A model generated the notes under the pieces. The model was given only the letters and a program-made list of their open reading frames with translations. It ran no database searches and was not told the origin of the DNA. Of a stretch of DNA of 64,000 bases, positions 22,671-45,299 are shown one piece after another; the stretch's first letter is position 1; the number at the start of each line of letters is the position of its first letter. This DNA is from Marinobacterium zhoushanense (GTDB taxonomy: Bacteria; Pseudomonadota; Gammaproteobacteria; Pseudomonadales; Balneatricaceae), in assembly GCF_014641945.1 (NCBI RefSeq), contig NZ_BMIJ01000005.1, forward strand, positions 222,718 through 286,717, in the 5' to 3' direction. A program made the translations under genes and the position numbers.

Positions 22671-22812
22671 GGTCGCGCCCTGCGAACTCATTTGGCTGGC
22701 GTGAGCCACCCCAATATCAATCCTGCTCTCCACTACTGACAGAGTCTGACAGTGGCTCCCTCTAGACTTCGTACCTGTGCATATCGCACGGAACATTCGT
22801 AGAGGAACCACT

Positions 22813-23121: not shown

Positions 23122-23122
23122 T

Positions 23123-23818
23123 ATGAGTAAAGCGGAGCGTCTGTTCAATCTCTATACCCTGCTGCGTGCCCGGCGGACCGCAATAACGGCAGACGCCATT
23201 GCGTCCGCGCTGGAGGTCAGCGTACGCACCGTGTACCGGGATGTGCAGGCGCTCACGCTGTCCGGCGTACCGATCGAGGGCGAGCCGGGCGTCGGCTATC
23301 TTCTGCGCCCAGGCTATGAGCTGCCGCCGTTGATGTTCAACGCCGAGGAGGTGCTTTCGCTGATGGTGGGTATCCGCATGGTGCGCGCGTTTACCGATCC
23401 CGATCTTGCCAGGGCGGCGCAACAGGCGGAACAGAAGATAACCTCAGTGCTGACGGAGCCGCTCAAGGCGCGTGCCGAAAACCAGCCCTACCGTATACCG
23501 GTGCTTGCCCAGGACGATGCGCTCAGAGAGGTGCATCGCACTCTGCGCGTTGCCTGCGAAGCGCAGCGAAAGGTGCATGCGATCTATGTTGATGAGCAGC
23601 AGAAAAGGACGGAACGGATGTTATGGCCGCTGGGGATAATCGGTTGGACAGGTCGCTGGACCCTGCTTGCCTGGTGTGAAACAAGGCGAGATTATCGCAA
23701 CTTCCGTTTCGACCGCTTTGAGGCACTGACGTGTCTGGACGCGCGATTCACACCTACTCCGGATATCAGCATTCGCCATTTCTTCGAGACGGTGATCGGT
23801 GTTCCCGACAAGGGTTGA
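23123..23818 (+). CDS. YafY-family transcriptional regulator (HTH + WYL domain)
   Basis: N-terminal DeoR-like HTH (…LEVSVRTVYRDVQAL…) and a C-terminal WYL-type domain. Confidence 0.75.
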   Translation: MSKAERLFNLYTLLRARRTAITADAIASALEVSVRTVYRDVQALTLSGVPIEGEPGVGYLLRPGYELPPLMFNAEEVLSLMVGIRMVRAFTDPDLARAAQQAEQKITSVLTEPLKARAENQPYRIPVLAQDDALREVHRTLRVACEAQRKVHAIYVDEQQKRTERMLWPLGIIGWTGRWTLLAWCETRRDYRNFRFDRFEALTCLDARFTPTPDISIRHFFETVIGVPDKG

Positions 23819-25647: not shown

Positions 25648-27399
25648 CTATTTCAACCAGAACGCGATCAGCGTGAACAGCGCGATCATGAACCAGACCA
25701 GCGACATCAACTGCCAGAACAGCAGCGCGTTGGGGTGCTTCTGCTCCGCCTCGCGCGGAACCAGGAACTCCGGGTTGGGCTGGGTCAGGTCCTGCATCAT
25801 CCGGTCGATGCAGTCATAGCGCTGGCTGGGGTCGATGGCCAGCGCCTTCTCCAGCGCGCGGTCGAACCAGACCGGGATGATCGGGTTGTGGCGGTCGGCC
25901 GGGATATAGGCGAGCTTCTGCAGCTGCTGCGGCTTGTCGCAGTTCTCCAGCCCGTTGCCGTAGGGCAGGTGGTGGGTGAACAGCTCGTAGGTGATCGCGG
26001 CCAGTGAGAACATATCGCCGCGGATACCGGTATTCTGGCCCAGACGGAACACCGGGTCGGAGTAGTTCAGCGTGCCCAGCACCCGGTCGCGCTTGAGCGG
26101 GACGAAGATCTCGTTGATCCCGGCCACGAACACCGAGCCGAAATCGACGATTACCGCGCTGTTGTCGGGGCGGACCATGATATTGCTCGGCTTCAGGTCC
26201 TGGTGCAGCGTCTCACGCTGGTGGAACGCCTTCAGGCCATCGGCGATCTGCTTGATCAGCTCGATCGCCAGCGCCGGTTTCGGTATCGGGTTCTGTTTCA
26301 TCCAGCGGTCCAGTGATACCCCCTCCACCGGTTCCATCAGGTAGTAGAGGAAGGTCTTCGGGCGGTGGGCGATATGGATACGCACCACGTGATCGTTGCT
26401 GATGCGGCTACCGACCCACTCCTCCATGATGAAGCGTTCGATATAGGCGGCGTCATCCTCGAAGTTGCGCGACGGCGTCTTCATCACCCAGCGCTCGCCG
26501 CTCTCGATCTCCTGTACCTGGTACAGCTGGCTGCGGCTGCTGGCGTACAGCTCCTCTTCGATCAGGTAGCCGTCGATCTTCATCCCCGGTTCCAGCTCCG
26601 GCGGGAAGGGCAGCGCGGTGAGCTGTTCGGTGAGCTGGTCCAGTGAGGCGTCGTGCAGTTGATCGACGCGGACCAACTGACAGCTCAGGTTATCCCGGCT
26701 ACCGGCCCGGTAGGCGGCGTTGACCAGTGCCTCGCAACAGCTCTTCAGCTCGCCGCTGCTGCTGGCCAGGCGCAGCAGCGTTTCCGGATCCAGCGAGTCA
26801 TGCACGCCATCGGTGGTGAGCAGAAACAGGTCGCCCGGTTCGATCTCCAGCGGCCGGTAGTCGATCTCCAGGTGGGTATCCATGCCCATGGCGCGGGACA
26901 GGCAGCCCTCACGCTTGTTGAGCTGGGTGACATGATCCTCGGTCAGCTGGTCGAGACGACCGTCCCGAATCAGGTAGATACGGCTATCGCCGATATGGAA
27001 CAGGTGCGCGGTGCGCGACTTGATCACCAGCAGCGACAGCGTACAGACGTAGCCGCGGGTGCTGGAGAGGTACTCATGGCTGCGTGAGTAGAGGGTGCGG
27101 TTGATCGAGGTGAGCACCTTCTGCGCGGACTTGCCCACGGTCCAGATATCGGGGGTGTCGAAATAGTCGCTGAGAAACTCGCGCACACAGATTTCCGCCG
27201 CCTCGCCACCCGCTTCGGCGGTGCTGACGCCATCGGCGATCACCGCCACCGCGCCCTTGGTGGTCAGCAGGTTGCCCTCGGGCTGAACGAAGCCGAGGCA
27301 GTCCTCGTTTCGCTCCTTGCGCCCCTTGTCGCTGCACTGTCCGACGGACAGCTGGATCTCATCCCGTAGATACATCGCCTGCAGGTTCAGGTTGCTCAT
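25648..27399 (-). CDS. Second PP2C-phosphatase / Ser-Thr kinase fusion with C-terminal TM anchor (paralog of 8990..10720)
   Basis: PP2C motifs (ADGVS, TTDG, SRDN); kinase VVMK, HQDLKPSN, DFG; C-terminal hydrophobic helix; 80 nt downstream of narK on the same strand. Confidence 0.8.
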   Translation of the reverse strand: MSNLNLQAMYLRDEIQLSVGQCSDKGRKERNEDCLGFVQPEGNLLTTKGAVAVIADGVSTAEAGGEAAEICVREFLSDYFDTPDIWTVGKSAQKVLTSINRTLYSRSHEYLSSTRGYVCTLSLLVIKSRTAHLFHIGDSRIYLIRDGRLDQLTEDHVTQLNKREGCLSRAMGMDTHLEIDYRPLEIEPGDLFLLTTDGVHDSLDPETLLRLASSSGELKSCCEALVNAAYRAGSRDNLSCQLVRVDQLHDASLDQLTEQLTALPFPPELEPGMKIDGYLIEEELYASSRSQLYQVQEIESGERWVMKTPSRNFEDDAAYIERFIMEEWVGSRISNDHVVRIHIAHRPKTFLYYLMEPVEGVSLDRWMKQNPIPKPALAIELIKQIADGLKAFHQRETLHQDLKPSNIMVRPDNSAVIVDFGSVFVAGINEIFVPLKRDRVLGTLNYSDPVFRLGQNTGIRGDMFSLAAITYELFTHHLPYGNGLENCDKPQQLQKLAYIPADRHNPIIPVWFDRALEKALAIDPSQRYDCIDRMMQDLTQPNPEFLVPREAEQKHPNALLFWQLMSLVWFMIALFTLIAFWLK

Positions 27400-27479
27400 C
27401 CGGCCATCCTCCTATTCTCCCCAAACACGACCGGGTGACACCGTTACCGATGCCACCCGGACCCTGCCTGTGTTGAGAC

Positions 27480-28952
27480 CTATTCCACGCTGATCAGCTC
27501 GACCGTACCGTCCGGCAGCACCTCGGCCATCTGGCCGCTGGGCTCGTCCATGAACTGCACCAGCAGGAACACCAGGCCCGCGGAAGCACCGATCACCATG
27601 AAGAAGGTGGAGTAGTCGACGAAGCTCAACACGGTCAGGTAGCACACCGCACCGACATTGCCGTAAGCCCCGGCCATACCGGCAATCTGCCCGGTCATGC
27701 GGCGCTTGATCAGCGGCACCACGGCGAATACCGCACCCTCACCGGCTTGGACGAAGAAGGAGCAGGCCATGGTGGCGACTACTGCCGCGGGGATCCACCA
27801 GCCGCCGTCGATCCGGCTCAGCACGAAGTAGCCTACAGCCAGACCCAGGATCAGTACGCTGAGGGTCTTGCGACGACCGATACGGTCGCTCAGGTGACCG
27901 CCGGTGGGACGGGCGACCAGGTTCATGAAGGCGAAGCCGGAGGCGAGCAGACCCGCCTTGACCGGATCCAGACCCTCGAAGGTCTCCAGGAAGAACAGCG
28001 GCAGCATGGAAACCACCGCCAGCTCGGAGCCGAAGGTAACGAAGTAGGCCACGTCGAGTACCGCCACCTGCTTGAACTTGTAGCGCTGGATCTCCGGCAC
28101 ACCCTCTTTCAGGTGCTCCTCGTTGACGTGGTAGATCGCCCGCAGCTGGAACAGGAACAGCCCGACCAACACGGCATAGATTGCCTTGGTGCCGAACTCA
28201 TCGAGCAGGCCCAGGTTGGTCGGCGACAGTTTCCAGGTCAGCACCGCCAGCGCGGCGTACATCGGCAGGTTCATCAGGATGTAGAAGACGAAGTCGCCCT
28301 TGCTGGTCACCTCCAGGCCGCCATGTTTCTTCGGCTTGAAGTAGGTGGAGCCCTTCGGGGTGTTGCGTGCCACGCGGTAGAACACGAAGCCGTACAGGAT
28401 CGCCATTACACCGGCAGTGGCCAGTGCGTAACGCCAGCCGTTGTCACCGCCGTAGAGCAGCGCGAGGGTGGGCAGGGTCATGGCGCCGGCGGCGGAACCG
28501 AAGTTACCCCAGCCGCCGTATACCCCCTCGGCCACACCGACCTGCTTGGCCGGGAACCACTCGCCGACCAAGCGGATACCGATCACGAACCCGGCGCCGA
28601 TGAAGCCGCTCAGGAAACGCATGATCGCCAGCTGCTCATAGGTCTGCGCCGCCGCAAAACCGAGGCAGATAAAGCCGCCGATCACCAGCAGCATGCTGTA
28701 CACCACCCGCGGGCCGTACTTATCCACCAGCGTACCGATGACGATACGCGCCGGGATCGTTAGCGCCACGTTAAGAATCAACAGCGCCTTGATCTCGGGG
28801 CCGCTCAGATCGAACGCCTCCTTGATATACGCCATCATCGGCGCATGGCTGAACCACACCACAAAGGTGAGGAAAAACGCGAACCAGGTAACGTGGAGGG
28901 TCTTGATCTTGGGATCGCCAAAATCGAGCAACCTCAGATTGTTGGTAGACAT
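27480..28952 (-). CDS. narK: NarK-type MFS nitrate/nitrite transporter
   Basis: 490 aa, 12 TM segments, nitrate/nitrite-porter signature regions; RBS AGGAG. Confidence 0.85.
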
Positions 28953-29116
28953 TTGACTGCTCCTGAACTGTTGGCAGCTTTAAAAAACGGGTCGAGTCAT
29001 GAGTGACACAGCGCCGATGCAAAGACTCCGTCGCCACGGCAGGATCCAGTCAGGTGTGTTCCGGGCTCATGGAGTATGCGTTGAGGCCAAAATAGGCCCT
29101 TCGGGGTAGGCGAATG

Positions 29117-29130
29117 TTGATGCAGGTCAA
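29117..29130. promoter_or_regulatory. Candidate FNR box (TTGAT-N4-GTCAA) upstream of narK
   Basis: ~170 nt upstream of the narK start codon; a degenerate copy of the GGTA-cac-TTAGTGGTA motif lies ~40 nt further upstream (29166-29188). Confidence 0.35.
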
Positions 29131-29292
29131 CTGGGATTTAGGGTGTTTGCGGAGTGAAATGGGCGTCTACCACTTATGAGGTATGGGGTTGGTGTGTGTT
29201 TAATTATTTGATTTTAAATTGGTAATAGGTTGATTGGTGATAAGGGGAACGTGGATAAGTTAGAGGTTGAGGAATAGGGGGTATCTGGTGGG

Positions 29293-29763
29293 GTGAGCGC
29301 GACGGTGGGCCAATTGAGTGCCAGAGTTGCATGCTTAAGTAGACTGGAGAAAGCGGAGGTGCTGTACCAGACTGTTGTAGATCACGCGCAAACGCGCAGT
29401 AGACGTGGTTGGATAGATAAATTCGGCGTTATGACCATGAAACCATCCTGTCCAATTTGCCATAAAAACTTCGGTTTATTCACCGGCCCGCAGTTAGAGT
29501 CTTGGTATCGCAGTCCGCTGACGCACTGCCGATGCCCTTTCTGCCAGGCTCCTCTGCAAATTGAGCGGAGCCAGCGTTTTACCTTCTTTGTCTGGCGACT
29601 GATAGCGTTTCTAAGCCTTGGAGTCATAGGTGCTAAATGGATGCTTTGGAAATACTTTTCATACGAGACTGCATTAGCCTTATTCGGACTGGTGACCGTA
29701 CTGATACTTGGATTCTTCGCTATACGCTTTTCACAGGGGATTAGGTACGTTCCACGGCTTTAG
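29293..29763 (+). CDS. Hypothetical zinc-ribbon membrane protein in a low-GC islet (true start possibly ATG 29425)
   Basis: CPICH…CRCPFC Cys pairs followed by two hydrophobic helices; AT-rich codon usage unlike its neighbours. Confidence 0.35.
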   Translation: MSATVGQLSARVACLSRLEKAEVLYQTVVDHAQTRSRRGWIDKFGVMTMKPSCPICHKNFGLFTGPQLESWYRSPLTHCRCPFCQAPLQIERSQRFTFFVWRLIAFLSLGVIGAKWMLWKYFSYETALALFGLVTVLILGFFAIRFSQGIRYVPRL

Positions 29764-30228
29764 CACCTTGATTAATGCAGTCCGCATGCATAAAGGACAG
29801 CTTGATCAAACCGGATGATATGCAGTCCAAAATCCTCCAGACCCCCGACTTAAATCCTGTATCTCATTCAGCATCTACTTGAGGCTCCCTCAAAGAAGGT
29901 TCCTAACCAATTCGTAGCCGCATCGAAAGTGGCGAAAGCATCAGACCTGTACCAGACTGTATTCTATTCCGTGCCGTAGGGATATGGGTGTGCATATATC
30001 GACAGGGATTCGGGAGTTGGTTGATGTCGCGAAGCTTTCTATCTTCTTCTGCATTTATCTATCTGCTTGTGTGTTTATGCACAGGCATCTATACCCCTAT
30101 GCTGTTGAGTCGATAGGTTTGCTAGGAGTAGGTAGCGTAAATGGGCTTGCAGTATATAAAAGTGTTATACGGCATGTAGCCTAGTAAGTACCTATAAAGC
30201 ATAAGGTATATAAAACTGTTAGGTGTAA

Positions 30229-30516
30229 ATGAGCATGGATGAAATATTCGGAATATTGACTGAATACACGCTGGCATTAAAAGCAGGGCTTGATAGCACG
30301 AGTCAAGCTAATGAGCGGCCATTAATCACGCGCCATCTAGTTGCGGCTGCTGAAATTTATGCATTGCTTCATAGCACGGGGAACTTAGAATCAGTGCAAG
30401 AGCTAGTTAAATCAGAGGTTCGCGCACATGGCTGGTCTTTTATATCGGGTCAGACCGGCGACACAATAGCCAAAAAATGGGTAGAGTTCACAAATGCAGT
30501 CGGTGTGCGGCAATAA
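30229..30516 (+). CDS. Hypothetical 95-aa helical protein (low-GC islet)
   Basis: ORF with a plausible start; no recognisable family. Confidence 0.3.
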   Translation: MSMDEIFGILTEYTLALKAGLDSTSQANERPLITRHLVAAAEIYALLHSTGNLESVQELVKSEVRAHGWSFISGQTGDTIAKKWVEFTNAVGVRQ

Positions 30517-30585
30517 AACACGTAACAAACCTCAGCAATCGCTCCCGTTGGTCGCAGGGACAGCTAAAACGCTTCGCTTATTTGT

Positions 30586-31230
30586 TTGCCCTTGTGCCGG
30601 CGCTATACGGAAATCCGAATGAAGCCACGTGATCTGCTGTTATTGAACGTAGTCGAATATGTTGAGCCTCAACTCGAAACCATTGGATTCAGGTTCTCGT
30701 CTAGGGGTATCGCATTCAAGCGTGCCTCCAGCATAGGTAATCAAGAGATTAGTTTTTCTTTGAGTAAGTGGGACAGTGAAGATGACTGTGATTTCTGGAC
30801 TATGTGGAGTGCCACTTCTTTAAAGTACAAAAAATGGTATCAAAAGGAATGGGGCCGTACCCCGGCTAATATTGCTCTCGGTGGTGATTGCGATTGGAAT
30901 TTGCCTGGGTGGCCACGAGCAGTTGCAGATCATTTTCACTTGTCAAATCACTCTAATGATGAATCAGAAATGGCGATGTTGATGGATGCGATAATTAATA
31001 TTGGGATTCCTTATCTCGATAGTATATCTGATTGGGAAGGAGCCGCTCACCACCTTGTTCAACAGTCATTACTCTTCAGTAAAGCCGCCGACTTTCTTAT
31101 GATTTCAGGAAAAATGGCTGCGGCGGAAGAAGTATTGCTGAGTGGTCTGTCGGTGTATCAGAGCGAGGGAAAAGTAGATCAACTCGGTGAGCTTGCAGAG
31201 ATTCAGATTCGGCTTAAAAGGTATTTTTGA
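30586..31230 (+). CDS. Hypothetical protein (low-GC islet), possibly immunity-protein-like
   Basis: ORF of ~200 aa (probable start 30619) with atypical composition; no confident family call. Confidence 0.35.
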   Translation: MPLCRRYTEIRMKPRDLLLLNVVEYVEPQLETIGFRFSSRGIAFKRASSIGNQEISFSLSKWDSEDDCDFWTMWSATSLKYKKWYQKEWGRTPANIALGGDCDWNLPGWPRAVADHFHLSNHSNDESEMAMLMDAIINIGIPYLDSISDWEGAAHHLVQQSLLFSKAADFLMISGKMAAAEEVLLSGLSVYQSEGKVDQLGELAEIQIRLKRYF

Positions 31231-31421
31231 GTAAAAATACGAATAGCAAGGTGCTCAAAATTGTTCGCTTAATAAATGGAGTCAGAGGGATAAATGGGGT
31301 CAGAGTATATTTTCTAACGGCCCGTCATATCGCGAGTTTTTAGGCGAAGCATTTTAGTTTTGGCATAGCGCGCCAACATTGTTCCTATAGAAATTCACCC
31401 GCCCCCGAAAGGGCAGGTGAA

Positions 31422-32579
31422 CTACTGAGCAGCCTTTACAGGTCCCAGTCTGACCAGATCATTCAGTACCGCATCAAGACCGCCATATACCGAGATCCTG
31501 TCGATACGTGAGGTGACCCGTTCCAGCGCCTCCAGCTCTTTCAGGCGCAGCAGGGTGGGGTTGTTTTCCATCATCTTGGCGGTGTTATGCAGTGATCGCA
31601 TCGCCTGAGTCTCCTCACGGCGTTTGATCAGGTTCGCTTCCGACTCTTTTTGAGCCTCCACGACCTGGTTCAGGATCTGCTTCATATCACCGGGCAGGAT
31701 GATATCTTTCACGCCAATGCTGATCATCTCGATGCCGTATTCGGTCAGCTTGCTGCGAATATCGTCGGAAAGCGCCGCGTTCAGGCTGTCCTTGTCCTCA
31801 AGCAGGGCGTCCAGCGTCTTCGTACCTACCGCTTCTCGCAGACGAAGCTGGAGTTCGCGATAGATGAAGTTGGCGTAGTCGTTCAACTTCAGTGCAACGG
31901 TTTCAGGGTCGGTCACCCTGTAGCTGCCGCTCAGGTTGATGCGCAGACTTACCCTGTCTTTGGTCAGGATCTCCTGGCCGCTCACTTCGATCGCCTGCAG
32001 GCGCAGGTCCAGTAGTTTGACGACAACGGAACGGTTGTACTTCCAGAAGCCGTAGTTGCCGGGCTGGAGCAGCTTTTCCAGCTTGCCGTTTACCGACAGT
32101 AGACCGGTGTGTTCATCCGGTACCTCGACATAGTGCATGGCCGCAACGGCACTGCGGCTTTTGCCCACTTTCATGTTCTGAGCGAGCATGCCGACAAGCT
32201 TGGTGTCTATGGCGAACGCTTCACTGATATCGACGATATCCACCCGCACCTTCTCGACCCCTTTCCAGACCGCCAGGAAAGCGCCGGGCGCCAGAGTATC
32301 GGTCAGATGACCGTCCCGGTAGAACAGGCCCACCTGAGTGTCGCTCAGCTCGAAGTGGTCGACATGGGGCTCCAGTAACTGCGCATGAGTATGGAGCAGG
32401 AATTTGGCTTTGGTGCTCTCGAACACCACATTACTGATGTCATGCGTTTCAACACGCACCTTGCCGGCCATACGCGTCATACGGTGGCGGCCCGGTTCCA
32501 GAACTTTGACCAGTCGGTTGCGGCGAAAAAGCAATGCGCGCTCGTTATCGGCAATATCAACTGTCTTCCATAGGATCAT
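31422..32579 (-). CDS. SPFH/band-7 (stomatin-like) domain protein with an extended, internally repeated N-terminal region
   Basis: C-terminal half carries the SPFH signature (…IEMISIGVKDIILPGDMKQILNQVVEAQKESEANLIKRRE…). Two similar N-terminal segments (ERALLFRRNRLVKVLEPG / HTGLLSVNGKLEKLLQPG). Confidence 0.65.
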   Translation of the reverse strand: MILWKTVDIADNERALLFRRNRLVKVLEPGRHRMTRMAGKVRVETHDISNVVFESTKAKFLLHTHAQLLEPHVDHFELSDTQVGLFYRDGHLTDTLAPGAFLAVWKGVEKVRVDIVDISEAFAIDTKLVGMLAQNMKVGKSRSAVAAMHYVEVPDEHTGLLSVNGKLEKLLQPGNYGFWKYNRSVVVKLLDLRLQAIEVSGQEILTKDRVSLRINLSGSYRVTDPETVALKLNDYANFIYRELQLRLREAVGTKTLDALLEDKDSLNAALSDDIRSKLTEYGIEMISIGVKDIILPGDMKQILNQVVEAQKESEANLIKRREETQAMRSLHNTAKMMENNPTLLRLKELEALERVTSRIDRISVYGGLDAVLNDLVRLGPVKAAQ

Positions 32580-32984
32580 TTCTCATCTCCTTTTTTGTTG
32601 TTTCACCTGTATCCGTCTTCACCTCGAACCCGAGGAAAAGTGGGCGAGGCCCACCCGAAAGGGCAGGGGCTGTCGGCTTGAACAGGGCAGGTTATACAGC
32701 CAGTGGTCCTTCGGCCTTTACCTCGACAAGGTGCGTTACCGCGTCGCTTGTTCCAGGTGTCTGCGTCCGGGCTTGGATGCACAGCATGCGATGTTGCCCA
32801 CTGGCAGCGACTGCACATTCAGCGCTCGGGTCTGCAGCGAAGCTGAGCCTCCATACCGGCAGGCGAGGACTCCGACAGCAAGCCCAAGCCATGGGCCTCT
32901 GATAGATTTCGTACAAGGTTCTTAGCCTTGCGGGGACTCGAACCCCAGGCTCTCGCCTTTCCCAATGAGTCGTTTACACGACGA

Positions 32985-33060
32985 GGTTACTTTGGCAGGA
33001 ATCGAACCTGCGCCCGGCCGATGTTTGATCGGCTGCTCTACCCGACTGAGCTACAAAGCA
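32985..33060 (-). ncRNA. tRNA-like element (tRNA-Phe-like pseudo-tRNA / tRNA mimic) downstream of rtcA
   Basis: On the minus strand: 7-bp acceptor stem, canonical D-arm (TAGCTCAGTCGGGTAGAGCA), T-arm (GCAGGTTCGATTCCTGC) and a 3' ACC tail. The anticodon loop is TCAAACA (C at position 33, AAA at 34-36), so it is not a canonical tRNA. A second isolated T-arm-like hairpin (GGGGTTCGAGTCCCC) lies at ~32925-32950. Confidence 0.5.
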
Positions 33061-33230
33061 GGTGTTCAGGACCTTCACAGATCGGTACACAAGGCGCCAA
33101 CGGCGGTTGTGCCAGGCGGGTGTACGGAACCCGCTCCGCTAATCTGAAAAAAGCACCCCCAAACGCTTTTACGATCGCCCGTACCTGACGGGTGATCTGT
33201 ATCTTTAATTGGTTTGGCATGAGTAGGTTC

Positions 33231-34241
33231 TTAAACACTTATACGCCAAACCCGTTTGCTCTCCTGTTGAGCCGTTACTTTTACGCCCGCCAGCTGTTTG
33301 ATCACCTCGATATTGGTCAGCAGGTGCTGACTGGGCGTCAGGGTTCTGAACTGACCGCCGTTGCCGCAGACCATCGGCAGCAGTAACTGATCCGCCAGAT
33401 ACTCACCGACCGGTACGCCGCTATCCAGGTAGCTTTTCAACCTCTGAATCGCACGGCCCGCGACGCGCTCCGCCGTTACCTGCTTCTCACCCACCACCTC
33501 GACCACTTCGGTCACCTGTTCGCTGGCGACCTGCAGCGACAGGATGTTGCCCGGCCCGGCCGAGTCCACCAGTCGCTGTTGCAGCTCATGGCTCGCCCAG
33601 TAGCACCTCTTCTGCACCTGTCCCAACTCGCGCTCCGTCACGTGTTTTGGGATGTGGGCCGAGGTGGCGACCGCCTGCCGGCTTAGTACCTCGCCACGTT
33701 CGGTCAGCGCCAGTGCTTGCAGCTCCTGTACAGGCTCGACGAGTATCCTCCAGGCGCCGCCGCCCGAGGGGTAAAAGCCGAACCGCTCCAGCGCCACCTC
33801 GGCCTGGTATCCCATCCGTCTGATGGCGGGCAGGAAGCAGCGCTCGATAAAGTCGTAGCTGGGGGCGAAGCCGTTATGGGTACCACCCTCCAGGTACAGC
33901 TCGCTGCTGCGCTCGGCGAAGAACAGCGGCAGCAAAACGGTCTGCAGTACCAGCGTGGTGCTACCCGCCGAGCCGATGGCAAAGCGGTACTCCCCGGCCT
34001 CAACCTTCCCTGGTTTAAATATCACCTCCGTTGAACCCGGTTTAGCGCCTGATACCTCGGCACCACATACTGTCTGTGCGGCTCGCAGGCAGGTCAGGTG
34101 CTGCCTGAGCAGCCCCGGTTTTGCCCGGCCGACGCGGATATTCTTTATCTGCACCGGCTGGCCCAGCTGCATCGCCAGCGTCAGTGAAGTGCGGAAGATC
34201 TGTCCTCCGCCTTCGCCCTGTGATCCATCGACAACAACCAT
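33231..34241 (-). CDS. rtcA: RNA 3'-terminal phosphate cyclase RtcA
   Basis: 336 aa; RtcA sequence throughout; 4-nt gap after rtcB. Confidence 0.9.
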   Translation of the reverse strand: MVVVDGSQGEGGGQIFRTSLTLAMQLGQPVQIKNIRVGRAKPGLLRQHLTCLRAAQTVCGAEVSGAKPGSTEVIFKPGKVEAGEYRFAIGSAGSTTLVLQTVLLPLFFAERSSELYLEGGTHNGFAPSYDFIERCFLPAIRRMGYQAEVALERFGFYPSGGGAWRILVEPVQELQALALTERGEVLSRQAVATSAHIPKHVTERELGQVQKRCYWASHELQQRLVDSAGPGNILSLQVASEQVTEVVEVVGEKQVTAERVAGRAIQRLKSYLDSGVPVGEYLADQLLLPMVCGNGGQFRTLTPSQHLLTNIEVIKQLAGVKVTAQQESKRVWRISV

Positions 34242-34245
34242 TGTT

Positions 34246-35472
34246 CTATCCTTTTACACACACCACCTGTTTCAGGGTGTAGACCACTTCCACCAGGTCC
34301 TTCTGTGCTTCCATCACCTTTTCGATCGGCTTGTAAGCAGAGGGTGTTTCATCGATAACACCTTCATCCTTTCGGCACTCCACGTCGGCGGTTGCCTGGC
34401 GGTGCTCTTCCAGCGATACCAGCTTCTTGGCCTGGGTTCGGGACATCACTCGCCCGGCGCCGTGGCTGCAGCTGCAGAAGCTCTCTTCGTTACCCAGGCC
34501 GCGGACGATGAACGACTTCGCGCCCATGCTTCCCGGGATTATCCCCAGCTCGCCCTCGCGTGCCCGCACCGCGCCCTTACGGGTTACCAGTACATCCTTC
34601 CCGTAGTGGTGCTCTCGGGAGATGTAGTTATGGTGGCAGTTGACCGCTTCCAGCCGTGCTTCGAACTCAAAACCCAGCGCATCCCTTACCGCCTGGATCA
34701 CGCGGGCCATCATCACTTCGCGGTTTACGCGGGCGAAGTGCTGTGCCCACTCCACCGCTTCGACATACTGGTCGAAGTGGTCGGTACCCTCCGGCAGGTA
34801 GGCCAGATCGGTATCCGGCAGATGGATATGCCAGCGTTCCATATCCTTTTTCGCCATCTCGATGAAATGGGTACCGATACGGTTACCCACACCGCGCGAT
34901 CCGCTATGCAGCATCAACCAGACACTTCCATGCTCATCCAGGCACATTTCGATAAAGTGGTTGCCTGTACCAAGCGTACCCAGGTGGTTGATGTTGTTGG
35001 TGTTCTTCAATACCGGGTGCTTATCCTTCAGCAGGTCGAACTGTGCGGACAGCGGCGCCCAGGCGCGCATCACATCATCCGGCAGATCGTACCAGGCGCC
35101 CTTATCGCGACCGCCGCGAGCACGGGCGGAGCGTCCATGCGGCACCGCACGCTCGATAGCCGAGCGCACCGCCGCCAGGTTATCCGGCAGCTGAGCGGCC
35201 GTGATGCTGGTACGCACTGCCATCATTCCGCAGCCGATATCGACACCCACCGCCGCCGGAATCACCGCGCCAAGGGTGGGGACCACACTACCGATGGTTG
35301 CGCCCTTACCGAGGTGGACATCCGGCATCGCTGCCACCCAGCGGTGGATAAACGGCATGCGCGAGATGTTTTTCAGTTGCTCCCTGGCCTCAGCTTCGAA
35401 TGGGACACCGACGGTCCAGGATTTGATCGGAACACCGCCGTCCTGCATCACTTCATATGCTTGCCGAGTCAT
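34246..35472 (-). CDS. rtcB: RNA-splicing ligase RtcB
   Basis: 408 aa RtcB/HSPC117 family; conserved metal-binding His/Cys residues. Confidence 0.9.
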   Translation of the reverse strand: MTRQAYEVMQDGGVPIKSWTVGVPFEAEAREQLKNISRMPFIHRWVAAMPDVHLGKGATIGSVVPTLGAVIPAAVGVDIGCGMMAVRTSITAAQLPDNLAAVRSAIERAVPHGRSARARGGRDKGAWYDLPDDVMRAWAPLSAQFDLLKDKHPVLKNTNNINHLGTLGTGNHFIEMCLDEHGSVWLMLHSGSRGVGNRIGTHFIEMAKKDMERWHIHLPDTDLAYLPEGTDHFDQYVEAVEWAQHFARVNREVMMARVIQAVRDALGFEFEARLEAVNCHHNYISREHHYGKDVLVTRKGAVRAREGELGIIPGSMGAKSFIVRGLGNEESFCSCSHGAGRVMSRTQAKKLVSLEEHRQATADVECRKDEGVIDETPSAYKPIEKVMEAQKDLVEVVYTLKQVVCVKG

Positions 35473-35520
35473 TGTGCTATTCCCTTATTCATTTCGTTGT
35501 TCGTTTGTCGACTTGACTAT

Positions 35521-35536
35521 AGCGAGGAAGGTGCCA
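35521..35536 (-). promoter_or_regulatory. Candidate sigma54 (-24/-12) promoter for rtcBA
   Basis: Minus-strand TGGCAC-cttcc-TCGCT with GG…GC spacing matching TGGCAC-N5-TTGCW; ~50 nt upstream of the rtcB ATG, in the rtcR-rtcB divergent region. Confidence 0.45.
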
Positions 35537-35684
35537 ACTTTTATAAAAGGGCTTGAAATGATTTTCATGTATCGGATTTATAAGGATTTATATATTTGTG
35601 TATCTCTTTTTGGATAGGCTGGGTATTTACTGGGCTGCAAAAAAATCTATCAAAAAAGATAGGTAGATATTATAGTCGATAGCC

Positions 35685-37274
35685 ATGAAGACAGTGGCGA
35701 TCAGCATTCTGGGCACGACCATGGACCGGCGCGGCAAGGGCGACAAGCGCTGGGACAAGTGGCGTCCGACCGTTTCCATGTTCCAGCACGACGATTTGCT
35801 GATCGATCGCCTAGAGCTGCTGTTCGACAACCACTCCCAGGGGCTGGCGAACCAGGTGACCGAGGATATCGCGCGGGTCTCGCCGGAGACTGAGGTGGTC
35901 CACCACCGGGTCAATTTCCAGGATCCCTGGGACTTCGAAACGGTGTATGGCGAGCTGCTCGACTTTGCCCGCGGCTATCCGTTCAAGCGCAGCCGCGAGC
36001 AGTACCTCATCCACATCACCACCGGCACCCACGTTGCCCAGATCTGCCTTTATTTACTGACCGAAGCCGGCTATCTGCCTGGCCGACTGCTACAGACCTC
36101 GCCGGCCCGCAGCGATAGCAACCTGCCGGGCGAATACCAGATCATCGATCTCGACCTATCCAAGTACGACCAGATCGCCTCGCGCTTCCAGAAGGAGCAT
36201 CAGGAGGGCACCACCTATCTGAAGGGCGGCATCGAGACCAACAATCCGGCGTTCAACCGCATGATCGAGCAGCTGGAGAAGGTCTCGATCCGTTCCAGCG
36301 AACCGATCCTGATCACCGGTCCCACCGGTGCCGGCAAGTCGCAGCTGGCGCAGCGGGTGTACGAGCTGCGCAGGCAGCGTGGCAAGCTGGAGGGGCGTCT
36401 GGTCGCCGTGAACTGCGCCACGTTGAGAGGTGAAAATGCCATGTCGGCGCTGTTCGGGCATAAGAAGGGCGCCTTTACCGGCGCCACCTCCGACCGTCCG
36501 GGCCTGTTGATGGAGGCCAACAAAGGACTGCTGTTCCTTGATGAGATCGGCGAGTTGGGTCTGGATGAGCAGGCGATGCTGCTCAGGGCGATCGAGGACA
36601 AGTGCTTTATGCCCTTCGGTTCCGACAAGGAGGTCAGCAGCGACTTCCAGCTGATTGCCGGCACCAACCGCGACCTCGCCCAGCTCGCCCGCGAAGGCGG
36701 CTTTCGTGCCGACCTGATGGCGCGCATCGACCTTTGGACCTATCAGTTGCCCTCGCTGAAGGATCGGATCGAAGACCTGGAGCCCAATATCGACTACGAG
36801 CTGGAGGTGTTCTCCGGCCGTTCCGGATATCTGGTGAACTTCAACAAGGCCGCCCGCGAGCGCTACCTGGCCTTCAGCCGCTCCGCCGACGCCACCTGGT
36901 CGGCCAACTTTCGTGATCTCAATGCCAGCATCACCCGCATGGGTACCCTCGCTGATGGCGGGCGTATCACTGTCGAGGTGGTAGATGAGGAGGTCGGACG
37001 CCTAAAGCGTAAATGGAATGCAACGTCGTCCACCGAGCAGAACGCGGGCGAACTGATCGAGCAGGTGTTGGGGCAGGGCAGTGCGGACAGTATCGATTAC
37101 TATGACCAACTCAAGCTTGCGGCACTGATAGAGGTGTGTCGCCACTCCAGCTCCATGGCGGAGGCAGGTAGGAAACTGTTCAACGTGAGCCGGGAAAGCA
37201 AGAGATCCAGCAACGACTCGCACCGGGTCAAGCAACTGCTGGCGAAGTATGGGATACGGTTCGAGGAGCTTTAG
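35685..37274 (+). CDS. rtcR: RtcR, sigma54-dependent transcriptional activator of rtcBA (N-terminal CARF-like domain, AAA+ domain, C-terminal HTH)
   Basis: AAA+ motifs (GPTGAGKS Walker A, GAFTGA sigma54-contact motif, FLDEIGEL Walker B); divergent to rtcB. Confidence 0.9.
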   Translation: MKTVAISILGTTMDRRGKGDKRWDKWRPTVSMFQHDDLLIDRLELLFDNHSQGLANQVTEDIARVSPETEVVHHRVNFQDPWDFETVYGELLDFARGYPFKRSREQYLIHITTGTHVAQICLYLLTEAGYLPGRLLQTSPARSDSNLPGEYQIIDLDLSKYDQIASRFQKEHQEGTTYLKGGIETNNPAFNRMIEQLEKVSIRSSEPILITGPTGAGKSQLAQRVYELRRQRGKLEGRLVAVNCATLRGENAMSALFGHKKGAFTGATSDRPGLLMEANKGLLFLDEIGELGLDEQAMLLRAIEDKCFMPFGSDKEVSSDFQLIAGTNRDLAQLAREGGFRADLMARIDLWTYQLPSLKDRIEDLEPNIDYELEVFSGRSGYLVNFNKAARERYLAFSRSADATWSANFRDLNASITRMGTLADGGRITVEVVDEEVGRLKRKWNATSSTEQNAGELIEQVLGQGSADSIDYYDQLKLAALIEVCRHSSSMAEAGRKLFNVSRESKRSSNDSHRVKQLLAKYGIRFEEL

Positions 37275-37505
37275 AACTCCTAGGATACTGGCAAAGGCGA
37301 TGGGGCTGTACCAGACTGTTCCCCATTATACGCGGTAGTTTTGCCGCTGCGGCAGCAGTGATCGAGATCAGGGACTGATAGGTGGAAGCTCTCTTTCGGC
37401 GTTATTCAGCCTCTCTGATTCACTTCGTCGTATGGGTTCCGCTGGCACTTGCGGTCGGATGGGTGCGGTTTTTCCACGGATATTGATTTCAAAGGAACTG
37501 AATGT

Positions 37506-38345
37506 ATGCATGCAAAATTAGGTGTGTGGGCACTACTGCTAACGCTTACCCTGACCGGCTGTGCCAATCTGAAAGAGGTCAGAGAGTACGCCGGCGAATC
37601 CGCCAAGTTCTCCGCCTATACCGAGTTGACCGAACGTTTCCGCGATACCTACTACCGCGAACAGCCCTACCTGACCGGTGAAGCAGAGCGGCTGGCGCAG
37701 GTAAACGATATCAAGCGCAAGGCGGCCTATGACGACCTGCTGACGATCCACCAACGGGTGGCGCTGTACATGCAGACCCTCGCCAGGCTGTCGGGTGAAG
37801 ATACCTTCGACCTCTCGGGAAACCTCGATTCTCTCGCCGGTGGTATCAAGGAGCACCCTGATCTGGGGATCGACAAGCAGCAGGTCGATGCCATCGCCGA
37901 TCTTGCCAATGTGGTGACGAGATGGGCGACCGCCTCGCAACAGCAGCGCGCGGTGCGCGAGATGATCAAAGCGGGCGATGCGCCGTTGCAGACAACCTTG
38001 CAGGGTATGAAGAGGCTTGTGCGTTATTACCGGGCAAGCCATGAAAACGAGAAGAGAACGGTGTTGGGTTTCTTTGAGGTAGAACTGCCCTACGTCGAAG
38101 ACCCGGAACACCGGCTCCTGGCCACCCTGGCGCGTGCGCACCTGCAGGCGAAAGAGGCCGAGTACCAGGCCGTTCAGCCCCAGTACGAGGCGGCGGCACA
38201 GGGTATCGAACGCATCGCCGAGGGGCACCGGAAACTGCTGGAGAATATCGACGATCTGACGAGTCAGGCGGTGAGAGACAGCATCAAGCGGTTCGCCAAG
38301 GATATCAAAGCGATCAGAAAGGATATCCAATCCATTGAAGGCTGA
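37506..38345 (+). CDS. Hypothetical lipoprotein
   Basis: Lipobox LTLTGC after a signal peptide (ATG 37506); helical, charged mature protein; unknown family. Confidence 0.5.
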   Translation: MHAKLGVWALLLTLTLTGCANLKEVREYAGESAKFSAYTELTERFRDTYYREQPYLTGEAERLAQVNDIKRKAAYDDLLTIHQRVALYMQTLARLSGEDTFDLSGNLDSLAGGIKEHPDLGIDKQQVDAIADLANVVTRWATASQQQRAVREMIKAGDAPLQTTLQGMKRLVRYYRASHENEKRTVLGFFEVELPYVEDPEHRLLATLARAHLQAKEAEYQAVQPQYEAAAQGIERIAEGHRKLLENIDDLTSQAVRDSIKRFAKDIKAIRKDIQSIEG

Positions 38346-38371
38346 GACTGGTAACGAAAGGAGGCAACAGG

Positions 38372-38788
38372 ATGGCGCTGGCAAATGAAATGGAAGTTGA
38401 GGCTTTTGCCCAATGTCTGACCGAATGTGCCGATGCAATTCATGAGCGTATCAAGGCGGCGATAAAAAACCGCGAGATTGAACGGGATCAAGCGCAGTCG
38501 ATGTTTCAGGAGGAGAGCCTGCTGCGTCAGCGCGCCAACGGGTTATACATCGACGCCGCCAATTCTGTCGTGGCGGGGCTGACAGAGCCGCAAGACGCTC
38601 TGCTCGCTGCAATCGATAACGCCAACGACCGGATTCAGCAGATAAAAGAGATCGCCGGTTTTATCGACCTGGTGACCGATCTTGCGGTATTGGCAGCAGC
38701 GGTCAGCGCGGCAAAACCCGCGCCGATACTGGCGGCACTGAAGGAAGTGAAAGAAGACGTCGACGCCGTGAACAGTCAGCATTCCTGA
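38372..38788 (+). CDS. Hypothetical 138-aa helical protein co-transcribed with the lipoprotein
   Basis: 26-nt gap from the lipoprotein gene; no family recognised. Confidence 0.4.
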   Translation: MALANEMEVEAFAQCLTECADAIHERIKAAIKNREIERDQAQSMFQEESLLRQRANGLYIDAANSVVAGLTEPQDALLAAIDNANDRIQQIKEIAGFIDLVTDLAVLAAAVSAAKPAPILAALKEVKEDVDAVNSQHS

Positions 38789-38845
38789 TCCTCCGCTGTG
38801 GTGTTTCACCAGAAGCCCAGCGCTGGGCAATAGGAGGTAACCGGT

Positions 38846-39427
38846 ATGAATGCCAAGGTTGAAGCGTTTTTGAGTAAAGCCGACAAATGGCAGCAGGAGC
38901 TCGAGAGGCTCAGAGCCATTGTGCTCGATTGCCGGCTGGATGAAGGACTCAAATGGGGTAAACCCTGCTATTCGGTTGAGGACAGGAACGTCGTCTTGAT
39001 CCATGGGTTCAAGGATTACTGTGCGTTGCTGTTTATGAAAGGCGCCTTGCTGAAGGATGCCGAGGGGCTGCTGGTGGCGCAGACAGAGAATGTGCAGTCG
39101 GCACGTCAGATCCGCTTCACCAGCGTTGCAGAAATAGAGGCGATGGCACCCACCTTGAAGCGCTATATCGATGAAGCGATTGAGGTGGAAAGGTCCGGAC
39201 GGAAGGTGGCGTTCAAGCAGACTGACGAGTTCGATGTTCCGGAGGAGTTGCAGGAGAGGTTTGACCGAGACCCCGCCTTCAAGTCGGCGTTTGAAGCCTT
39301 AACACCGGGACGGCAGAGGGGCTATCTGCTCTATTTTTCCACCGCCAAGCAGTCGAAAACACGCGAGATGCGGATCGAGAGGTCCAGGCAGAAGATTATC
39401 GAGGGCAAGGGCCCGAGCGATCGCTGA
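38846..39427 (+). CDS. DUF1801 / YdeI-like (bacteriocin-protection, OmpD-associated family) protein
   Basis: 193 aa with the DUF1801 N-terminal region and a YdeI-like C-terminal region (…GRQRGYLLYFSTAKQSKTR…). Confidence 0.55.
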   Translation: MNAKVEAFLSKADKWQQELERLRAIVLDCRLDEGLKWGKPCYSVEDRNVVLIHGFKDYCALLFMKGALLKDAEGLLVAQTENVQSARQIRFTSVAEIEAMAPTLKRYIDEAIEVERSGRKVAFKQTDEFDVPEELQERFDRDPAFKSAFEALTPGRQRGYLLYFSTAKQSKTREMRIERSRQKIIEGKGPSDR

Positions 39428-39471
39428 TCAAGCCGCATTCTGGACGGCACGGGTGTGGTGTGACTGAGGTG

Positions 39472-40131
39472 TTATCCCAGCCCCTCCTGCACCGCCCAGA
39501 CCGCCACCTCGACTCGCGACTTCAACCCCAGCTTCTTCAGCAGGTGTTTCACGTGCACCTTCACCGTACCCTCGGTGATGCTCAGTTTGCGGGCGATGAT
39601 CTTGTTCGACATGCCGCCGGCGATCAGCTTGATGATCTGCTTCTCGCGCGGGGTCAGGGTGTCGATATCCGGGCCCTTGCGGCTACGGTTGTTCTGCAGT
39701 GCCTGGGCCAGCAGGGTGGTGAGACGGTCGCTGATCACCATTTTGCCGAGCGCGGCCTGGTTCAGGTTGGCGAGCAGATCTTCCGGCTCCATATCCTTGA
39801 GCAGGTAGCCGTCGGCACCGGCCTTCAGCGCGGCGACCACATCCTCTTCGTTGTCGGACACGGTGAACACCACCACCCGCGATCCGACACCGGCTTCACG
39901 CAGCATCTTCAGGCACTCGATGCCGTTGATCTCCGGCATGTTCAGGTCCAGCAGGATCAGGTCCGGCTCCAGAGCGTCGGCCTTGGCGACCCCCTCCTCG
40001 GCGCTACTGGCCTCACCGACCACCTCCAGTTCGTCGTCAAGGGCGATCAGCTGCTTGACCCCGGTGCGCAGCAGGGGATGGTCGTCGATCAGCAGGATGG
40101 AGGCGGGGGCGGTGTTGCTCATCTCGGTCAT
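39472..40131 (-). CDS. narL: Nitrate/nitrite response regulator NarL
   Basis: Near-collinear match to E. coli NarL ([18 protein letters not shown]…[16 protein letters not shown]…SRVEVAVW). Confidence 0.9.
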
Positions 40132-40162
40132 GGGGCTGCTCGCTTCTTGGTTTGCAACAAAG

Positions 40163-41983
40163 TTAAGACTGCTTGGGTTTAAATGTCATCAAAACACAGG
40201 TACCGCTGGGCTCACGGTTATCCACACTCAGATCGCCGCTCAGGGTATGGGTACGGTCGCGCATAATCAGCAGGCCGTAGTGACCCTGGTTCTCCAGCGA
40301 GGGCGGCAGACCGACGCCGTTATCCTCCACCCGCACCTCTACCCGTTCGCCGGACTGAGTAACCTGAACCGTTACCTCGCTGGCCTGGCTGTGCTTGACC
40401 ACGTTGGCCAGGGCCTCGCGCACCAGTTGCAGCACGTGGATCTCCTCGTTGGCGGTCAGGCTCTGATGGTGCAGGCTGTATTTCAGCGGGATGTCGAAAC
40501 CGAGGCGGTCGGAGAACTCCTTGACCGTGGACTCCAGCGCCGGTTGCAGGCCGGGTTGGTCCAGGGTCAGGCGGAAGGTGGTGAGCAGCTCGCGCAACTG
40601 GCGGTAGGCGTTGTTCAGCCCCTCCTTGAGCTCGGCGACCACATCGTCAATCTGCTCTTCGTCACGTTTCTGTTTGCGCAGGATCTGCAGGCGACCCACC
40701 TGCATCTTCAGGTAGGAGAGCGACTGTGCCAGGGAGTCGTGCAGTTCGCGGGCGATCACAGCGCGTTCCTCCATCAGCGACATGTGCTGCTCCTGGCTGG
40801 CCTTCAACTCCAGCGACAGCACGATGGCCAGGTTTTCCACCAGTGTGCGGAGCAACGCTGTCTGCTCCTGACCCAAGGGTTGCGTGGGCAGGAAGTTGAC
40901 TTTGAACTCGCCGAAATAGGCTTCCCGGGTTTGGATCGGCAGTGTGATCGAGTCGTGTAGACGGTTATCCGGCTCCGGCACTATGCAGTCGTTGCAGTCG
41001 GAGTTTTTGCAGTCGGCCGGCCGCTCCAGCAGTTGGGTAGTCAACTGACGATAGCTCAGGCGGTGGTGCGGATCGCACAGCGTGACCTCGATCGGCCCGA
41101 CGGCCAGAACATCCTCCAGCTCCTTCATGATCGGCATCAGGCGGCGGCAGATATCCTCGTTGCGGTTGAAACGTCGGGTGGCGTTGTAGAGCAGTTGCAG
41201 ACTCTTGTTGGATTCGCGCAGCTCGGCGGTTTTTCTCTGCACCCGGTTTTCCAGGTCGGCGTAGATCTTCGACAACTCCTCGGCCATATGGTTGAAGGTG
41301 GTGCCCAGCAGGCCCAGTTCGTCGTCGCTACGGTAGTGCACACGGGTGTCGAGCTTACCCTGGCCGGCATCGCGGGCCACGTTGAGCAGCTGGGCCAGGG
41401 GCTCGACCACGTTGGACTTGATGTCGTACATGGCGATGAAGATGATCATCACGGTCATGAACAGGCTGATCCCCTGGATCAGGCTGAGCAGCTTGATCTT
41501 CGATTCGGTGCTCTCCTCAAGCAGATGCACCATCTGGTCGATGCGGGGGACGAAATTCTCCAGTTGGCGCAGATAGGCCGAGTGGTCGGGGCTGTCGGTG
41601 AGGATCGCCGCCTTCAGCGCGGGCTGGAAGTTGTCGCGCCATTCGTCGACCAGCGTGGTGTAGGCCAGTCGCAACTGTTGCTGGTCATCCTTGGGCAGCA
41701 CATTGGTCAGGATCGGGTCGTTGATACGGCGGTCGAACTCGCCAATAGAGGTGAGCACCTTGTCGCGGCTGGTCTCGCTGCCCTCGCTGGCGTGCTGCTG
41801 GGTCTCGGCGATGATGCGGTAGGACATCATGCGCAGCGAGCCGGCCAGGTTGATTCCGGCGGCATCGCCCTGAGTGCTTTCCGCCACGATGACCGAGCTG
41901 ATCATACTGATCAGCGCCATCAGGCTGATGGCGAACATCGCCGTGCCCAGTCGGGTAATGATCGATTGCCTGAGGATCTTCAT
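40163..41983 (-). CDS. narX: Nitrate/nitrite sensor histidine kinase NarX
   Basis: Two TM segments flanking a periplasmic P-box-like region; HAMP; H-box ([11 protein letters not shown]) and HATPase domain; directly upstream of narL. Confidence 0.9.
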
Positions 41984-42107
41984 CGTTGCACTCCGTCGAG
42001 CCGCGCGGGGTTACTCACAAAGAATCGCGTAACGGCTAGCGTTTTTTCCACACCTTGCGTCAGACGTGGAAAATATAAGTTAAAACAGTCTGTTACAAAG
42101 AAAAGAA

Positions 42108-42130
42108 GTGGTACCACCTTAGTGGTATGG
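42108..42130. promoter_or_regulatory. Conserved promoter motif GTGGTACCACCTTAGTGGTATGG (candidate NarL site), ~35 nt upstream of an FNR box
   Basis: 18/20 identical to the motif upstream of narG (46748-46767); contains the palindrome GTGGTACCAC and TACCAC-type heptamers. Confidence 0.45.
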
Positions 42131-42164
42131 GCTGAAATGGTTAACTTTTTCAGCCAGTTATACG

Positions 42165-42178
42165 TTGATGCGCGTCAA
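42165..42178. promoter_or_regulatory. Candidate FNR box (TTGAT-N4-GTCAA) upstream of narK1
   Basis: ~62 nt upstream of the narK1 start. Confidence 0.45.
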
Positions 42179-42239
42179 TATCCGGGGATCGGTCCGGGTT
42201 TAGGTTTGGCTCAAATCGTCAGACCCGAATCGTATCACG

Positions 42240-43526: not shown

Positions 43527-43640
43527 CCAGAGCGGCAACCGTCCGCTTCCCCGACCGGCCGATACGCGGCTTCGGGGCGGGTTCGACGTCAAGATCAGTC
43601 GGGCGTCAGGCGCCCGCTGCTTCAGCCTGGAGTGTGAGTC

Positions 43641-45245: not shown

Positions 45246-45274
45246 TCGATGTGACTCGAGTTACTGAGCAGATT

Positions 45275-45299
45275 GCGGGGCCAGACGCCCCGCTTTTTT
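45275..45299 (+). terminator. Rho-independent terminator after narK2
   Basis: GCGGGGC-cagac-GCCCCGC hairpin followed by TTTTTT. Confidence 0.6.

Follow-up and report, generated by a model that had tools for sequence, protein, structure and literature searches.

An accessory islet of about 8 kb in Marinobacterium zhoushanense that joins a Band-7/tRNA-like/Rtc RNA-repair module and three decayed integron cassettes between short direct repeats

RtcB has been described beside a Band-7 protein and a predicted tRNA that is termed band-7-associated ('b7a-tRNA'), an association set out, without experimental validation, in a preprint (bioRxiv 10.1101/312249, citing Burroughs & Aravind 2016), and in Pseudomonas aeruginosa an SPFH gene (PaFlo8) is embedded in the rtc locus (PMC13086221). 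The regulator RtcR responds to damaged tRNAs (PMC7790460), with activation by damaged tRNA ends reported for Salmonella and Escherichia coli (PMC7790460, PMC9650030). Here we analyse a 64-kb stretch of the genome of Marinobacterium zhoushanense (contig NZ_BMIJ01000005.1; the whole stretch is called the window below), in which the spacer between the nitrate transporter gene nasA and the gene p298 holds an islet of ~8 kb. The islet joins elements of already known kinds, namely a Band-7/b7a-tRNA/Rtc module and three decayed integron cassettes. We consider it probable, though well short of certain, that it is a composite accessory islet that was moved by recombination between copies of a short site and that carries two unrelated cargo parts.

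The Band-7/b7a-tRNA RtcB systems share with the islet an rtcR gene divergent from rtcB, rtcA, an SPFH/Band-7 gene and a tRNA-like gene with a non-decoding anticodon loop. The order rtcB-rtcA-tRNA-like-SPFH is found here and in one further locus (L084), as against tRNA-like-SPFH-rtcB in Photobacterium, Burkholderia and others; the islet differs further in that its tRNA-like gene lies inside a conserved RNA region of ~280 nt, and in that its module sits on a repeat-bounded indel. By analogy, it may also be compared with the Salmonella rsr-yrlBA-rtcBA locus (Ro60 with tRNA-like Y RNAs), where RtcR-controlled rtcBA is likewise linked to a non-coding RNA that mimics tRNA. However, there is no Ro60/TROVE gene here, a Band-7 protein being present instead, and an Rfam search of the RNA region (32885-33170) returned a tRNA only, with no Y-RNA or YrlA match.

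The ends of the islet recall integrase-less genomic islands flanked by attachment (att) sites and cis-mobilisable elements built by tandem accretion: repeats stand at the ends with a third inside, a close relative without the block keeps one repeat, the composition is atypical and no integrase is present. In contrast to those elements, the islet is only 8 kb long, its target is an intergenic hairpin rather than a tRNA or tmRNA gene, and it carries neither an integrase remnant nor transfer genes. Its small genes resemble integron cassettes and clusters of attC sites lacking integron-integrases (CALIN), being three same-strand genes low in guanine plus cytosine (GC) with homologues in cassettes, with GTTRRRY boundaries, with an R'' site (..TAAC) after the stop and with no intI nearby. 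They differ from them in their attC sites, which have decayed (GCT in place of GTT, weak hairpins) and of which none was detected intact, and in that the array abuts a 6-kb operon that is not a cassette.

The occupied and the empty form of the site make a clean natural pair in sister species. Relatives, one genome per species, were scanned with the neighbouring NasA-type nitrate transporter of the major facilitator superfamily, which gave 80 related loci. The closest is that of M. ramblicola D7 (L001; NasA 97% identical at the amino acid (aa) level, DNA ~88% identical), which has the gene order narX-narL-p138-p298-nasA-kinase and lacks the genes for the zinc-ribbon protein (ZnR), o95, o203, the SPFH protein, RtcA, RtcB and RtcR. 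BLASTN aligns the window with this locus over 25652-29285 and 37523-46418; the intervening 29286-37522 (8,237 bp) is missing as a unit, with 194 bp in its place, in keeping with the island that the first-pass annotation had suggested between the outer repeats. The 194 bp hold one repeat core, CTGGTCCAGACTGTT, which a GGGT/ACCC-type hairpin carries in its loop. In relatives further away narL and nasA are immediate neighbours, with neither rtc genes nor core. There are, then, direct repeats at both junctions of the islet and a single copy at the empty site of the relative.

The 14-mer CTGTACCAGACTGT occurs exactly three times in the window, always on the + strand, at 29362-29375, 29947-29960 and 37306-37319; number and orientation are as first reported, while the middle copy had been placed at 29948-29961. 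With up to two mismatches allowed there are four matches where 0.36 would be expected, and none of 100 shuffles gives as many. Copies 1 and 3 share, as had been stated, the exact 16-mer GCTGTACCAGACTGTT, and an imperfect repeat extends to 39 nt (copy 3, 79% identity; copy 2, 67%; positions in Table 1). The arms of copies 1 and 3 outside the identical 16-nt core are only ~65% identical, a combination more in keeping with two recombining sites (attL and attR) than with a duplication newly made. To its left, copy 1 has sequence orthologous to M. ramblicola (no score as high in 500 dinucleotide shuffles); the end of rtcR, which forms the left flank of copy 3, shows no such orthology. This pattern matches the expectation attL = B-O-P', attR = P-O-B'. 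Copy 3 starts 8 nt past the rtcR stop, in the GGGG/CCCC hairpin recognised earlier, and copy 2 is flanked by an R''-like CCTAAC (29905-29910) and by GTAGGGA (29975-29981).

No further copies of the core were found in the rest of the 64 kb, and it is absent from the spacers upstream of nasA in 13 relatives; across the 80 related loci, the 14-mer has unrelated coding matches only, apart from the orthologous copy of M. ramblicola (21 kb of that genome). A REP/BIME-type (repetitive extragenic palindromic/bacterial interspersed mosaic element) repeat would show many dispersed intergenic copies, usually in both orientations, against the three found here in the window, all on the + strand and all within 8 kb. 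Over the 64 kb and the relatives covered the core is not a general repeat, and neither the window nor the 80 related loci give the picture that the first-pass annotation had named as fatal to an island, a common 14-mer in a syntenic region of typical composition. Similarity of the flanks beyond 39 nt, including the 3' end of rtcR, is not significant (dinucleotide shuffles), and a search downstream of rtcR homologues found no conserved motif. On inspection, the 14-mer was not accepted as a sigma-54, LexA, NarL, FNR or dif-like site. A phage or satellite attP was also considered: the 51 viral-contig matches of GCTGTACCAGACTGTT (loci L176-L226), ~46 of them in one conserved marine phage coding stretch, have unrelated flanks and were put down to coincidence.

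A second shared block, the 11-mer TTCGGCGTTAT, has just two copies in the window, one 45 nt downstream of repeat copy 1 and the other 74 nt downstream of repeat copy 3. In this, copy 1 behaves like a site preceding a first cassette, and copy 3 has the same core in front of p298.

The three small genes had been held to belong to no recognisable family. All three have homologues and, judged from aligned sequences, they are members of cassette-borne families whose cassette boundaries can be seen. ZnR matches TIGR04104 weakly; its homologues (56% and 43% identity) had been missed by a word-indexed search and came from an exhaustive one, and both are in cassette context, with homology beginning at GTTA(T/G)(G/A) just before the ATG and running on, beyond the stop, as far as the R'' motif of the attC (alignment A6). 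Homologues of o95 occur in three contexts: a TARA-ocean array (L165) with repeated ACATAAC...GCGTTATGT attC hairpins, a toxin-antitoxin-rich array with canonical attCs (L168-170) and a locus adjoining an IntI-type integrase (L171). In the DNA alignment of o95 (A4), homology begins exactly at GTTA(G/T)GTGTAAATG, just upstream of the ATG, and extends beyond the stop codon as far as TAAAACAC(G/A)TAACAAA, with which the attC belonging to the cassette opens. In the window's copy of this attC, R' is mutated to GCGCTATACGG and the hairpin weakened. The o203 protein (203 aa), which matches a M. zhoushanense protein at 100% identity, belongs to a family of which 5 of 10 members match PF14137 (DUF4304), and is in this way related to DUF4304. 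In L161 its homologue is carried by a cassette that has GTTGTAC upstream and, downstream, an attC of the form GTACAAC...GTTAGTG; HEPN_AbiU2 and BrnT genes lie next to it. Structure prediction, which had been proposed for these proteins, gave confident AlphaFold models of o203 and o95 (predicted local distance difference test, pLDDT, 93 and 90), but fold searches with the models were uninformative.

At their 5' ends these genes have the form of cassettes, a single promoterless open reading frame (ORF) behind a G|TTRRRY core, GTTAGGT before o95 and GTTATGA before ZnR. At the 3' ends R'' motifs remain, and no attC-type hairpin in the islet passes a purpose-written R''/R' hairpin scan, which recovers the true attCs in the control arrays L165 and L168 (folding energies of -20 to -57 kcal/mol). 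Five L165 attCs, combined in an nhmmer profile, gave no match in the window either, so that the attC sites are recognisable by homology only. Because these sites are decayed, the cassettes are immobile and fixed in place; stray integron cassettes can evidently lodge and decay beside an Rtc module. Just upstream of o95 there are two copies of GTATATAAAA(G/C)TGTTA, at 30152-30167 and 30206-30221, 54 nt apart, which make two R'-like core sites in tandem. A 66-aa ORF at 29984-30184 is of doubtful reality.

The remainder of the islet, with the SPFH gene, the tRNA-like gene, rtcA, rtcB and rtcR, is the already described Band-7/'b7a-tRNA'/RtcB module, which is found elsewhere without the small genes. 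Pfam and NCBIfam bear out the gene content that had been read from the sequence (Table 1; NF003246 is also above its cut-off in the module): RtcB, RtcA and an RtcR with sigma-54 AAA+ domain are encoded, and rtcR is oriented divergently to rtcBA. Scanning metagenomes with RtcR yielded 80 rtcR loci. L084 has the same order as the window, with SPFH (73%), tRNA-like gene, RtcA (66%), RtcB (89%) and RtcR (80%), while the order rtcR, one or more tRNA-like genes, SPFH, rtcB is found in L099, L100, L102 and on secondary replicons of Photobacterium (L174) and Burkholderia (L175). The linkage of SPFH to rtcB/rtcA is kept in these six other loci.

The tRNA-like gene had been read as a tRNA remnant. That reading fails because an intact tRNA-like gene is kept beside SPFH and rtcB in unrelated bacteria; the gene is a component of the module and not an integration scar. 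Its anticodon loop is UCAAACA, with C at positions 33 and 37, and its D and T arms are canonical; what would be annotated as 'tRNA-Phe(AAA)' becomes a non-decoding band-7-associated tRNA mimic. Here it lies beside the Band-7 gene, and its counterparts adjoin SPFH in all six loci just named. Across loci the D and T arms are invariant, the 'anticodons' vary (AAA, AAT, TGT, CAT and others) and most of the genes lack CCA. The region around the gene includes upstream stem-loops with compensatory changes relative to L084 (CGGGT/ACCCG vs CCGGT/GCCGG) and, downstream, a T-arm-like minihelix, GGGGTTCGAGTCCCC; as a whole it may form a longer, Y-RNA-like transcript. The mimic varies in copy number: Photobacterium (L174) has two tRNA-like genes, and L099 has four, one after another, in the interval from rtcR to the SPFH gene (9007-9711).

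Composition had been noted as AT-rich over 29.0-31.4 kb, and windowed values uphold this, GC being 45.8% for 29286-31421 against an average of 61.1% (sd 2.2) in 2-kb windows outside the islet. The GC fraction at third codon positions (GC3) is 0.42-0.52 in the small genes, 0.71-0.81 in the SPFH and rtc genes (0.81 in rtcR) and 0.85-0.88 in nasA and narL. The islet is a mosaic, its cassettes having 46% GC vs 58% in the SPFH/rtc part, which does not support the single origin supposed at first. A plasmid origin was considered and rejected: the islet has no PLSDB match, and its rtc part matches ordinary rtc loci only, at 66-70% identity.

Table 1. Positions of the islet's repeats, genes and other elements in the window
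Feature	Position	Strand	Remarks
Repeat unit, copy 1	29338..29376	+	Left boundary; exact 16-mer 29361-29376; sequence to the left orthologous to M. ramblicola
11-mer TTCGGCGTTAT, copy A	29422..29432	+	GTTAT is an R'-type core, G|TT at 29428|29429; start of ZnR cassette
Cassette gene 1, ZnR	29431..29763	+	110-aa zinc-ribbon protein (CxxC...CxxC); two hydrophobic helices; start may be M3
Repeat unit, copy 2	29923..29961	+	14-mer exact; in spacer behind zinc-ribbon gene
R' core site GTTAGGT	30218..30224	+	5' boundary of o95 cassette; homology to four other o95 cassettes begins here (A4)
Cassette gene 2, o95	30229..30516	+	Four-helix protein; conserved family of 92-96 aa, 58-80% identity
Decayed attC of o95 cassette	30521..30609	+	R'' = CGTAAC; aligns with L168 attC
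Cassette gene 3, o203	30619..31230	+	DUF4304-related; alpha/beta N-terminal and TPR-like helical C-terminal domain
SPFH/Band-7 gene	31422..32579	-	Pfam PF01145, 9.6e-33
Conserved non-coding RNA region	32885..33170	-	Between rtcA and SPFH; ~280 nt conserved with L084
tRNA-like gene, 'b7a-tRNA' type	32985-33060	-	ARAGORN; Rfam tRNA 56 bits
rtcA, RNA 3'-terminal phosphate cyclase	33231..34241	-	PF01137, 6.9e-76
rtcB, RNA ligase	34246..35472	-	PF01139, 5.5e-133
Candidate sigma-54 promoter, TGGCAC-N5-TCGCT	35521..35536	-	~50 nt upstream of rtcB; one mismatch to TTGCW; putative, read from the sequence
rtcR, sigma-54 activator with RtcR (CARF-type) N-terminal domain	35685..37274	+	PF06956 and PF00158; NF038308 780 bits, cut-off 650
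Repeat unit, copy 3	37282..37320	+	Right boundary; exact 16-mer 37305-37320, in loop of ATGGGG/CCCCAT hairpin
11-mer TTCGGCGTTAT, copy B	37395..37405	+	G|TT at 37401|37402

The repeats at both ends and the one copy in the islet-free relative are as they are, on the account we favour, because site copies recombined. As an integrase-less, att-flanked element, the islet would have entered or left at a short site, an exact 16-bp core within an imperfect repeat of ~39 nt, with the help of a recombinase encoded elsewhere or since lost; copy 2 would be the trace of an earlier event. The three promoterless low-GC cassettes (ZnR membrane protein, o95 and o203) would by now be fixed in place. In the other part, RtcR is predicted to act as a CARF-type sensor fused to a sigma-54 activator and, by analogy with the systems in which it has been studied, would activate the promoter before rtcB as damaged tRNA ends accumulate. 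RNA damage would in this way switch on rtcB-rtcA, in a transcription unit that probably takes in the tRNA-like RNA and the SPFH/Band-7 gene as well. RtcB religates broken RNA and RtcA forms 2',3'-cyclic phosphate ends, with the Band-7 protein and the tRNA-like RNA as predicted cofactors. We infer, besides, that the 16-mer repeat is the actual crossover site, which way the event ran, and that the two parts have no functional link. On this account the RNA-repair module of Rtc, Band-7 and tRNA-like genes belongs to the movable, accessory DNA of the genome rather than being a fixed housekeeping locus.

Several observations weigh against this account. The second shared block, TTCGGCGTTAT, ends in a cassette-type G|TT core, which suggests a possible crossover there and not at the 16-mer, and a single event leaves copy 2 unaccounted for. 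Clear homology to M. ramblicola resumes only at ~37476-37523, and the right junction is located only within 37320-~37476, in a poorly conserved spacer (right flank of copy 3 against that of L001, p ~0.1). The empty site is seen in one genome, so that the polarity, insertion or deletion, rests on parsimony; the repeat counts cover the 64-kb window, which leaves room for a genome-wide repeat family. Single-strand folds of the three repeat units (both strands, two lengths) are no better than shuffled sequence, with z from -1.8 to +1.8. Pfam scans of most predicted genes in the window revealed no integrase or transposase domains, as the first-pass annotation had also concluded, and tblastn of the window with the IntI-type integrase from L171 found no match; within the 64 kb there is no cognate recombinase of the kind an att-flanked island would have. 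Finally, a single transcript that runs from the rtcB promoter over the tRNA-like RNA and SPFH is a prediction, and a terminator-like hairpin precedes SPFH.

The 11-mer is also the starting point for a rather unlikely rival, in which the whole block, 29429-37401, was inserted by IntI-type recombination at the G|TT of a TTCGGCG|TTAT core, the repeat units being one family of attC- or attI-like sites and the rtc/SPFH operon lying inside a CALIN-like array whose integrase was lost or never there. All three small genes are cassette genes, the 11-mer is found only at 29422 and 37395, its GTTAT at copy 1 coincides exactly with the start of the ZnR cassette homology, the arrays in which the homologues reside have GGCGTTAT as their R' consensus, and copy 2 falls in the spacer that follows the ZnR gene, the expected place for the attC of ZnR. 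Yet the repeat units lack the hairpin folding of attCs, unlike the true attCs in L165 and L168, copies 1 and 3 have no recognisable R'' partner, the copy in M. ramblicola is without the 11-mer, and the window holds no intI. Nor does a block of 6 kb that has a regulator of its own and two divergent transcription units resemble a cassette. The claim that the units are non-canonical, weakly folding integron-type sites and that a complete regulated RNA-repair operon was captured and moved as a giant 'cassette' in an integrase-less array is, in our judgement, quite doubtful; if true, it would be an unreported route for the spread of Rtc systems. It is unlikely, too, that the block is ancestral here and was deleted by M. 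ramblicola through slippage or illegitimate recombination between pre-existing direct repeats. Short direct repeats are classic end points of deletions, one core copy is left in M. ramblicola and the GC3 of rtcR is near that of core genes, but the repeats would still need an origin of the integration type, the distant relatives have narL beside nasA without rtc genes or core, the arms outside the 16-mer differ as they would for two different partner sites, and the composition of the block is atypical and mosaic.

Two further readings leave the recombination account aside. The 14-16-mer could be a functional motif (an operator or promoter element) or REP-like, standing before + strand genes and only by coincidence at the ends of the indel: every copy precedes such a gene (ZnR, o66/o95 and p298), in M. 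ramblicola the core before p298 is kept between diverged flanks, and it is in a hairpin loop there as in copy 3. This leaves unexplained the break at copy 1 and the resumption of homology after copy 3, the copies have no sigma-70 or sigma-54 promoter match, and there are no more of them in the 64 kb or in relatives, all of which makes a motif very unlikely. The first-pass annotation had gone further and raised the possibility of a defence or immunity cassette whose RNA damage Rtc would sense; in its fuller form, a defence or toxin-immunity cassette would cause RNA damage that the adjacent Rtc genes sense and repair. The two parts are indeed adjacent in one repeat-bounded block, and homologues of o203 and o95 are found among HEPN, BrnT, ParE, VapC and CcdB genes, some of them RNases; such neighbourhoods are, however, ordinary for integron arrays. 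The small genes are in 0 of the 80 rtcR loci, their homologues are independent cassettes with no rtc genes among the called neighbours, ZnR, o95 and o203 do not occur together elsewhere, PADLOC has no match for any of the three, and the fold searches were uninformative. The distribution largely refutes the defence model, which we regard as most improbable.

Beyond the right end of the islet, p298, p138 and p193 (window 37449-39427; L001 8239-9521) have no Pfam, NCBIfam or PADLOC match. Protein matches to p298 and p138 are confined, within the 80 related loci, to this genome and M. ramblicola, and DNA homology suggests that p193 is likewise common to both. The p298-p138-p193 segment is an older insertion common to the two sister species. 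Because distant relatives have narL beside nasA, the nasA-narL spacer has been struck by accessory DNA at least twice and is a hotspot.

By Pfam scans of most predicted genes, the window is otherwise given to nitrate/nitrite metabolism, regulators and cofactor synthesis. At 22777-23818, a 114-aa ORF with no Pfam match lies directly upstream of an HTH-WYL regulator gene, with GC3 of 0.65-0.69, below that of its neighbours. Paralogous fusions of a PP2C phosphatase and a Ser/Thr kinase are encoded on the - strand at 8990-10720 and 25648-27399, each adjoining the gene of a nitrite/nitrate transporter, of FNT type (10781-11623) and NasA type (27480-28952), respectively; the pairing of kinase and nasA is kept in 80 of the 80 related loci.

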